A stretch of DNA of 64,000 nucleotides. It comes from a virus. Below, piece after piece: positions 26,961-27,910 of this stretch; the first letter of the stretch is position 1, and every line of letters starts with the position of its first letter. The DNA is taken from positions 64,380-128,379 of the IMG/VR virus record IMGVR_UViG_3300045988_141926. One strand, written 5' to 3'. The notes under the pieces were generated by a model, which saw only the letters and a list, made by a program, of their open reading frames with translations, had not been told where the DNA came from and made no database searches. Both the position numbers and the translations under genes were made by a program.

Positions 26961-27152
26961 GAGTGGCAACTACTCAAAGAAAATGTTGCGGGTGGTTTTG
27001 GAGTGCTTTCCATCAGTACATAAATAAAAGTGCTCTTGTATGCGGGTATGGTGGAATTGGTAGACACACTAAAAAAAATTTGGGTAAGTTTTCCAAAAGT
27101 ATTAGTAATAATTTTTATAATTATTGAAAGAAAAATAAAGGTGGTTATAAAA

Positions 27153-27611
27153 ATGCGGACTGATATTTTAGAACGAAAAAATGAAATCCTTAAATGGATT
27201 GAAGAAGAATAGCCTAAATGTTATATGTGCCAACAGTTAGGTTGTAAACAAGAAACTCTTAATTCTTATTTAGACAAGATGGGTATTATTTATGCTGGTC
27301 AATAGGCTAAAAAAGGACAATTAAAAGGAACTAATGTTTATAAACCTGCTTCATATTACATCGAAAATAATAAACCAATCGCTTCATTTAAATTAAAAGA
27401 AAAATTGATTCGTGATGGTTTAAAAGAATGCAAATGCGAAATTTGTGGAATTTCAACTTGGCAAGGGGTAAAACTTCCATTAGAATTACATCATAAGAAT
27501 GGAAATCATATGGATAATACCTTAGAAAATTTACAAATTTTATGTCCTAATTGTCATTCTATTCAAGAGGGTAATAGTGGAGCAAATATTGGTAAATATT
27601 CGGGCGAGTGA
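27153..27611 (+). CDS. HNH homing endonuclease (2 in-frame TAG) inside split tRNA
   Basis: CKCEICG..WQ..ELHHKNGNHMDNTLENLQILCPNCHS; ORFs 27030/27405 joined in frame 0 via TAG. Confidence 0.55.
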
Positions 27612-27686
27612 TGGAACAGGAAGACAACTTTGACTTAGAATCAAAGGCCGAGAGGCGTAGGGGTTCAAATCCCCTCTCGCCTACCA
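27602..27686 (+). tRNA. tRNA-Leu(TAG), type II
   Basis: anticodon arm TTTGA-CTTAGAA-TCAAA, variable hairpin GCCGAGAGGC, T-arm AGGGGTTCAAATCCCCT, acceptor GGGCGAG/CTCGCCT-A-CCA; weak D-stem. Confidence 0.5.
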
Positions 27687-27910
27687 TCATTTAGTAGTCT
27701 ATTAATTTTGGATCAGTGTGGGTTCGAGTCCCACTACCCGCACCATTGTTGATTTTACTATTTTATCAATGTTAGAATGGAAGGGCTCCATTCAAATCGC
27801 TCAAATCGGGTTGGCCAAGAGGAGAGATAGATGAAAATAGTTTGAGGTGGAGAGTTGGAAAACCTAATAGCTATATTAGGTATACATAATGTAGCTATCT
27901 CATAAAATTT

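Follow-up and report, generated by a model that had tools for sequence, protein, structure and literature searches.

On the plus strand of the 64,000-nucleotide stretch of DNA analysed here (the window), which stems from an uncultured large phage with a genome of roughly 180 kb, the two ends of a single tRNA-Leu(UAG) gene lie far apart and enclose a gene for an HNH endonuclease and a second, complete tRNA-Leu(UAG) gene (Table 1). The ARAGORN count for the window is 26 tRNA genes, one of them a tRNA(CUA) at 38777, and reading TAG as a sense codon turns the ORF-poor segment between 13.4 and 25.2 kb into a continuous row of long plus-strand ORFs. A large protein encoded in the window is related only to huge-phage genomes.

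The enclosed ORF had been taken in an earlier note on this DNA for a TAG-recoded HNH endonuclease gene, and this assignment is borne out. The ORF passes the Pfam cut-off for PF01844 (22.3 bits against 21.4, residues 95-136), and its product matches the PHROG HNH families (PHROG 14736, E=1e-26) and is 45% identical to HegA (T5.075) of phage T5 over residues 1-150 (E=3e-47). The HH...N...H and CPNCH motifs are conserved in the alignment of homologues, in which both in-frame TAG codons align with Gln; a PDB sequence search with the protein returned no informative relative. The gene is intact and, by these alignments, a putative homing endonuclease gene of the HegA family. In L106, a near-identical contig (HNH 96% identical, DNA about 98% identical across the region), the start codon of this gene is ATA, which may mean that the enzyme is already decaying in part of the population.

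The type-II tRNA with anticodon UAG that the same note had placed across the end of the HNH gene is likewise recovered, by ARAGORN and by Rfam (RF00005, 43 bits against a gathering score of 29). Its first 10 nucleotides overlap the ORF, whose stop codon, TGA at 27609-27611, lies inside the tRNA. Its cloverleaf fold has a 7-nt anticodon loop, a long variable arm and a weak D-stem of just two Watson-Crick pairs. This inner tRNA is complete, is the only tRNA-Leu(UAG) that ARAGORN finds in the window, and is unrelated to the resident tRNA-Leu(UAG) described below. Among the loci examined, tRNAs of its type (tRNA identity 74-100%, HNH identity 63-96%) occur only directly downstream of HNH homologues, and the endonuclease gene and the inner tRNA therefore behave as one unit.

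Table 1. Features of the split tRNA-Leu(UAG) locus and other interrupted tRNA genes of the window.
Feature	Position	Strand	Description
Outer 5' fragment, resident tRNA-Leu(UAG)	27042..27065	+	Acceptor 5' strand, D-stem 5' strand, D-loop, start of D-stem 3' strand
5' exon-like remnant, cassette-borne	27066..27073	+	ACACTAAA; rest of D-stem 3' strand and anticodon-stem 5' strand CTAAA
Cassette leader	27074..27152	+	A-run/T-run/GG motif (27071-27084); ribosome-binding site AAAGGTGG (27137-27144)
Putative HNH homing endonuclease gene, T5 HegA family	27153..27611	+	152 codons; in-frame TAG at codons 20 and 51
Inner complete tRNA-Leu(UAG)	27602..27686	+	ARAGORN Leu(tag), 85 nt; encoded CCA
3' remnant, cassette-borne	27687..27715	+	TCATTTAGTAGTCTATTAATTTTGGATCA; anticodon-stem 3' strand TTTAG and degenerate variable region
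Outer 3' fragment, resident tRNA-Leu(UAG)	27716..27745	+	Variable-region end, T-arm, acceptor 3' strand, discriminator A, CCA
tRNA-Trp(CCA), interrupted	25253-26065		Insert 25289-26026
tRNA-Gln(UUG), interrupted	37665-37858		Structured 117-nt insert 37700-37816
tRNA-Gly(UCC), interrupted	42282-42813		Insert 42319-42774

The acceptor strands that the earlier note saw bracketing about 700 nt lie exactly where it had put them, GCGGGTA at 27042-27048 and TACCCGC at 27735-27741, the latter followed by A (27742) and CCA (27743-27745). The comparison with an intact orthologous tRNA that it had suggested is provided by four sister phages (L186-L189), found through a neighbouring protein (26084-26581, 93-98% identity), in which the tRNAs follow one another as in the window, Phe-Asn-Leu(tag)-Ala-Thr-Leu(caa)-Glu, separated by almost identical spacers. 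In the interval from tRNA-Asn to tRNA-Ala, all four have a single intact tRNA-Leu(UAG) gene of 85 nt (GCGGGTGTGGTGGAATTGGTAGAC, TCGGAGGATTTAGGTTCCTCTGCCAAATGGT and GTGTGGGTTCGAGTCCCACTACCCGCACCA, read consecutively), where the window and L106 have a 704-bp structure. The outer 5' fragment equals nucleotides 1-24 of the intact gene, save for A instead of G at 27048, and the outer 3' fragment equals its last 30 nucleotides with all positions identical. Identity between the window and its sisters ends at 27065 and restarts at 27716, the intervening 650 nt being missing from the latter. Thus the window and L106 have 650 nt in place of the 31 nt at the centre of the resident gene, a segment comprising the remainder of the D-stem 3' strand, the entire anticodon arm (stem GAGGA/TCCTC in the sisters) and most of the variable arm, and the inserted cassette is polymorphic for presence and absence between otherwise identical flanks. 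Beyond the sister phages, a 26-nt 5' piece has exact matches in 25 IMG/VR contigs, where it starts ordinary tRNA-Leu genes whose ends are matched by the 3' piece, and the segments 27039-27070 and 27716-27747 find matches of 97-100% in intact tRNA-Leu genes of other phage contigs.

On this homology, the outer halves are the two ends of one resident tRNA-Leu(UAG) gene. They cannot yield a decoding tRNA because the 31 nt that included the anticodon arm have been replaced, and it is because the resident anticodon arm is gone that the earlier note could fold no clean one from the outer pieces. The outer pseudo-tRNA retains perfect pairing in each of its four stems, the cassette-borne CTAAA/TTTAG among them; this is explained by a recent insertion, and may also reflect a role at the RNA level.

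Two short tracts between the resident ends and the endonuclease-tRNA unit resemble tRNA exons of another origin. The 5' tract, ACACTAAA, differs from the resident sequence TCGGAGGA of the sister phages and recurs as the continuation of the 5' half in intact tRNA-Leu genes elsewhere (L005, L010), where it runs on through ...ACACACT; its CTAAA (27069-27073) is complementary to TTTAG at 27690-27694. The 3' tract, TCATTTAGTAGTCTATTAATTTTGGATCA, is identical in L106 and missing from the sister phages, which read ...TCCTCTGCCAAATGGT there. Exon-like, foreign to the resident gene and located on both sides of the endonuclease gene (27066-27073 and 27687-27715), these remnants came with the cassette from an earlier host tRNA. 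Tracts of donor origin thus flank the endonuclease gene and the inner tRNA was transferred along with them, the pattern of co-conversion known from SegB (see below). No donor genome turned up when viral contigs were scanned for exact matches to the inner tRNA and the left junction. The leader motif AAA(A)TTT(T)GG precedes the HNH start by 77-85 nt in 10 of the relatives of at least 65% identity, compared with a background of 2% per 150-nt window; this A-run/T-run/GG element may be the promoter of the cassette.

The association recurs among 160 IMG/VR and metagenome loci with genes for relatives of the HNH protein. Endonuclease gene and tRNA-Leu(UAG) are adjacent in 60 of the 160, the tRNA lying at most 80 nt downstream of the HNH gene in 37 and at most 120 nt upstream in 23; tRNA-Leu accounts for 46 of the 50 immediately downstream tRNAs, and Leu(UAG) for 102 of all 967 tRNAs in these loci (about 10%). 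A script requiring an unassigned T-arm and 7/7 acceptor pairing with an unassigned 5' half across the HNH gene scored 34 of the 160 loci as split tRNAs. Group I core motifs are found in six of these 34, where the outer genes are tRNA-Leu(UAA), and one of the loci (L101) reaches the Rfam gathering score for RF00028; the HNH family, then, lives in genuine group I introns as well. A further 23 contigs, with some 12 distinct arrangements, lack these core motifs and have a split tRNA that encloses an HNH gene and an inner tRNA. In such nested loci the inner tRNA is nearly always Leu(UAG), the split outer genes are nearly all tRNA-Leu-like, both gene orders are seen, and each outer acceptor stem is different and fully paired. 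In one of them (L119) the outer tRNA, whose orthologue in L112 is an intact tRNA(UAG), is interrupted within the anticodon loop. Three loci (L039, L048, L110) keep only the 5' half and other relatives keep no half, which is the course expected if the relics decay or if the similar 3' halves of inner and outer tRNAs recombine.

It is very probable, in our judgement, that a 650-bp HNH homing cassette bearing a substitute tRNA-Leu(UAG) invaded and destroyed the resident tRNA-Leu(UAG) gene of this phage. The cassette comprises the leader, the HNH gene, a heterologous tRNA-Leu(UAG) that starts in the last codons of the ORF, and the flanking exon remnants. Among the options that the earlier note had left side by side, a tRNA disrupted by a mobile HNH cassette is the one supported, the site being empty and intact in the sister phages. 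The junctions fall in the two most conserved blocks of tRNA, the D-loop (GGAATTGGTAGAC) and the T-arm (GTGGGTTCGAGTCC). When a cassette-free relative infects the same cell, the HNH enzyme would cut or nick its intact tRNA-Leu genes, and the break would be repaired from the cassette-bearing genome, copying the cassette, with homology for the crossovers supplied by the D-loop and T-arm blocks. The tRNA of the cassette would itself be a sequence variant that escapes cutting and, as cargo, would restore Leu(UAG) decoding and thereby render the invasion harmless or neutral to the phage. Two features probably hold endonuclease output down: translation through both TAG codons depends on the suppressor tRNA of the phage, and RNase P, in maturing the overlapping tRNA, would take the stop codon off the mRNA. 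Delayed production of the endonuclease has been argued for recoded phages (bioRxiv 10.1101/2021.08.26.457843), and stop-codon removal from an mRNA by tRNA processing was proposed for SegB of phage T4 and the F-Tfl enzymes of T5 (PMC2330249).

Of the other readings, coincidence has in its favour nothing beyond the prior expectation that complements of 7 nt arise randomly in 64 kb. The bracketing is not due to chance because both pieces match one intact gene at the orthologous site; they are collinear and identical with its two ends in four sister phages, which refutes both chance complementarity and a pair of unrelated tRNA pseudogene fragments, and leaves these possibilities, each of which the earlier note had kept in view, with a practically negligible probability. 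That note had also considered a tRNA with an intron; on such a reading, transcription of the outer tRNA-Leu would run through the insert, and the 650 nt would be removed by self-splicing or by proteins to give a working outer tRNA. More distant HNH relatives are indeed encoded in group I introns proper, within tRNA-Leu(UAA), with a match to RF00028 of 53.7 bits in L101 and core motifs in L085, L087, L063 and L090, and the insert in the window lies where the anticodon loop would be, closed by the 5-bp stem CTAAA/TTTAG. Yet an Rfam search over 26600-28200 at E<=1, for which L101 with its 53.7 bits served as positive control, found neither RF00028 nor any other ribozyme, and one over the whole window at the gathering threshold found tRNAs alone. 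The ORF is preceded by 82 nt of non-coding sequence and followed by 104 nt, of which 75 belong to the inner tRNA, and this is too little for a ribozyme. The intron mode of ARAGORN (0-1000 nt, relaxed score), a search the note had proposed, likewise found the inner tRNA only and none spanning the joined outer exons. The nucleotides flanking CTAAA/TTTAG give no loop with U33 and a purine at 37 in any combination, and a 7-nt anticodon loop built there by hand was rejected on that count; nor could an archaeal-type bulge-helix-bulge (two 3-nt bulges and a 4-bp helix) be drawn by inspection, the CTAAA/TTTAG stem being all that is available. Relative to the intact orthologue, the resident gene has lost its anticodon arm and most of its variable arm, so that the comparison with the sister phages already contradicts a working outer tRNA. 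With no ribozyme, and an outer gene without an anticodon loop, the locus does not appear to be an intron, and we regard this explanation as highly improbable.

A different proposal is that the outer halves are kept as a non-decoding RNA clamp, a natural "tRNA scaffold" whose acceptor, D and T arms and closing stem supply sites for RNase P and 3'-end processing or, alternatively, stabilise the endonuclease mRNA and the inner tRNA precursor. Consistent with it, every outer stem is intact, the cassette-borne anticodon stem included, comparable closing stems occur in the nested loci L027 (15 bp), L062 (11 bp) and L029 (a 13-bp hairpin), and covarying helices close the neighbouring insertions in tRNA-Gly and tRNA-Trp. 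However, the outer acceptor and T arms are identical to those of the intact gene in the sister phages, and their perfection is explained by a recent insertion; moreover, one or both halves are lost in L028, L039, L045, L048, L110 and T5-like phages, and a maintained scaffold seems improbable to us. The differing, fully paired outer acceptor stems of the window, L026, L027, L055 and L107 had been entertained as functional covariation, which was rejected because, as the sister phages reveal, the outer stems are those of the resident gene itself, freshly split. When the outer RNA is artificially joined, the D-arm (27053-27065) can form a 13-bp pairing with 27697-27709; inspection by eye of L026 and L027 found no counterpart, and the pairing is unexplained or due to chance.

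Invasion by a tRNA-bearing homing cassette has partial precedents. T5 HegA belongs to the same protein family as the window HNH protein, and this family, too, is encoded inside a phage tRNA gene cluster, but HegA has an extra C-terminal domain and its gene is not adjacent to tRNA-Leu(UAG), for which reason target specificity may vary within the family. Closer are the HNH proteins of the cultured T5-like phages S124 and Slocum (52-53% identical to that of the window), the ends of whose ORFs overlap a tRNA-Leu(TAG) as in the window. Unlike the window, the T5-like genomes examined have no orphan tRNA halves around the HNH/tRNA pair, and the nested, target-splitting arrangement is not annotated in them. 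A note in the GenBank record of Serratia phage Slocum names the T5.075/HegA endonuclease TflIV; a passage in one paper cites F-TflIV as a site-specific HNH nuclease of T5 (PMC5714182), and passages in two others refer to the F-Tfl enzymes of the T5 tRNA gene cluster as homing endonucleases (PMC2330249, PMC10644984). SegB, a free-standing GIY-YIG homing endonuclease in the tRNA cluster of T4, cleaves a tRNA gene of a related phage and drives co-conversion of the neighbouring tRNA region (PMC2330249). It resembles the window enzyme in being free-standing among tRNA genes, with an ORF end that adjoins a tRNA, and differs in its nuclease family and in its intergenic location, with a target gene that is not split and no nested halves.

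HNH genes in group I introns of tRNA-Leu(UAA) have been reported for Bacteroidota (PMC13011429). The introns of this kind identified here (L101, L085, L087) encode more distant HNH relatives (36-44% identity) and, like the window cassette, interrupt tRNA-Leu in the anticodon loop, and they are mobile by homing, as the cassette would be; they possess a ribozyme core and complete exons, whereas the cassette has no ribozyme, has cost its target 31 exon nucleotides and carries a whole tRNA gene. In phage Aeh1, insertion of the endonuclease MobE splits the host gene nrdA. A passage in the literature (PMC2677866) terms "fractured genes" those that a homing endonuclease splits without an intron or intein. 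There, as in the window, an endonuclease gene has been inserted directly into a gene and two pieces are left; the pieces of fractured genes remain functional, as split inteins or as two subunits, whereas those in the window are dead and function comes from the spare gene in the cassette. Hence neither endonuclease genes within the tRNA clusters of phages nor group I introns of tRNA-Leu are new; the literature searched has no description of an endonuclease cassette that sits in its target tRNA gene and carries a substitute tRNA, with one tRNA nested in another. The window cassette would be a variant of free-standing homing-endonuclease mobility.

Under the cassette reading, the locus illustrates one way in which a selfish endonuclease gene may colonise a gene that it would otherwise destroy, by bringing along an immune spare copy of the target, so that the insertion would cost the phage nothing. 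It would also explain why members of this HNH family are accompanied by tRNA-Leu(UAG) in widely differing phages, T5-like ones included, and why phage tRNA arrays are mosaics of swapped alleles, while interrupted genes would explain why tRNA finders under-count the tRNAs of such genomes. The near-identical phages with and without the cassette, which are distinguished by this site alone, constitute a ready experimental system.

Other tRNA genes of the window are interrupted as well. Trp, Gly and Gln are missing from the ARAGORN list because all three of the genes, though present, are interrupted (Table 1). The Trp and Gly inserts consist of an ORF only, lie exactly between nucleotides 36 and 37 with both exons complete, and encode PD-(D/E)XK endonucleases (PF11645); they have no Rfam match and no room for a ribozyme, and the sister phages have intact tRNA-Trp and tRNA-Gly genes. 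The ends of the Gly insert form two helices, paired at 117 of 117 positions across nine distinct tRNA-Gly loci, with compensatory double changes in one column of helix 1 and in at least five columns of helix 2, which includes the stop codon. In our own reading, the two junctions are displaced relative to each other across helix 1, in the Gly as in the Trp family, in the manner of a cut leaving a 2-nt 3' overhang. It is conceivable, though doubtful, that this phage lineage handles interrupted tRNA genes independently of ribozymes, through excision by a protein such as RNase III and resealing by an RNA ligase; if true, protein-dependent tRNA splicing would exist in a bacterial or phage form, and the architecture of these interrupted tRNAs would have a decayed relative in the outer halves of the Leu locus. 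In the L210 copy the outer anticodon stem is mismatched, and not every copy can therefore be a working tRNA. The 117-nt insert of tRNA-Gln, for its part, is present in all five sister genomes and is fixed in the clade.

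Two further tRNA genes in the window, those for tRNA-Trp(CCA) and tRNA-Gly(UCC), are split by endonuclease inserts lying precisely between nucleotides 36 and 37 (see the table). The 738-nt insert of the former is filled nearly completely by an ORF (25381-26013) whose product is a PD-(D/E)XK endonuclease of family PF11645 with a C-terminal helix-turn-helix, and no ribozyme was found in it. It is present in two sister phages (L186 and L189) and absent from a third and a fourth (L187 and L188) and from the near-identical contig L106, all three of which have the intact gene. A related contig, L117, carries a different tRNA-Trp interrupted at the same site by an ORF 74% identical to that of the window. 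The sole content of the 456-nt tRNA-Gly insert is likewise a PF11645 ORF, of 137 aa, and the tRNA-Gly of another sister phage (L190) is uninterrupted. The ends of this insert form two helices that covary across 9 distinct loci, with 117 of 117 positions paired and compensatory changes extending to the stop codon; in our reading, the offset at the insert junctions resembles a cut with a 2-nt 3′ overhang.

Further tRNA genes and tRNA-like pieces of the window
Feature	Position	Structure or allele	Detection
tRNA-Trp(CCA)	25253-26065	split gene, insert 25289-26026	missed by ARAGORN
tRNA-Asn(GUU)	26884-26960	allele differs from that in L106 and L186-L189	
3′ fragment, T-arm and acceptor-like	33162	+ strand	
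3′ fragment, T-arm and acceptor-like	37388	+ strand	
tRNA-Gln(UUG)	37665-37858	117-nt structured insert in anticodon loop	Rfam tRNA, 44.2 bits
3′ fragment, T-arm and acceptor-like	41511	+ strand	
tRNA-Gly(UCC)	42282-42813	split gene, insert 42319-42774	missed by ARAGORN

In the related contig L116 (463-1110) a bare HNH ORF of the T5 HegA family, accompanied by neither ribozyme nor inner tRNA, splits tRNA-Leu(UAG) between nucleotides 36 and 37, and the stop codon of the ORF supplies A37 and A38 of the tRNA. The tRNA-Leu(UAA) of L008 (5455-5572) holds an insert of merely about 30 nt, at position 34/35. The HNH gene of L106 starts with ATA (2501-2503) rather than ATG, one further glutamine codon in it is TAG, and this endonuclease gene may be in early decay.

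At the split tRNA-Leu(UAG) of the window, the outer D-arm GGAATTGGTAGAC (27053-27065) can pair with GTCTATTAATTTT (27697-27709), in the 3′ remnant of the cassette, in an unbroken run of 13 positions that includes 4 G-U pairs; inspection by eye revealed no counterpart of this pairing in the related contigs L026 or L027. The would-be position of the outer anticodon loop is occupied by an A-run/T-run/GG element (27071-27084, AAAATTTTTGGAC-like), conserved in six related contigs (L027, L029, L109, L110, L114 and L121) at a constant distance, 77-85 nt, before the start codon of the HNH gene. The element could serve as a promoter or as a site for protein binding.

The insert of tRNA-Gln(UUG) is of another make: a helix, CGAGAAA/TTTCTCG, closes it around four hairpins, and it is kept in four sister contigs (L190-L193). 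Its 117 nt fall short of the size of a group I intron, and Rfam returned no ribozyme match within it.

The stretch 26800-26999, which holds tRNA-Asn, differs from L106 at 32 positions, many of them paired stem changes, and the spacer past it is identical in the two; from sequence comparison, it looks like a gene conversion patch within the tRNA array. The three 3′ fragments, for which no 5′ partners are recognisable, could be either 3′ halves surviving as relics or processing signals of tRNA-like form; that at 33162 lies directly downstream of a sodium:dicarboxylate symporter-family gene (32053-33108). Rfam places an additional tRNA match (35.8 bits) at 29873-29942, where ARAGORN calls none.

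Outside the tRNA genes, a row of long ORFs appears at 13433-25172 when TAG is read as sense; by eye, CxxxCxxC motifs of the type usual in radical SAM enzymes occur in several of these ORFs, and some resemble glycosyltransferases. Among the related contigs, L087 encodes a tmRNA (1785-2322) and L026 a ROOL RNA (3876-4471, 307 bits) within a tRNA array. The 830-aa product of 51247-53739 in the window has matches to the eukaryotic major vault protein, in the shoulder and repeat domains of the latter.
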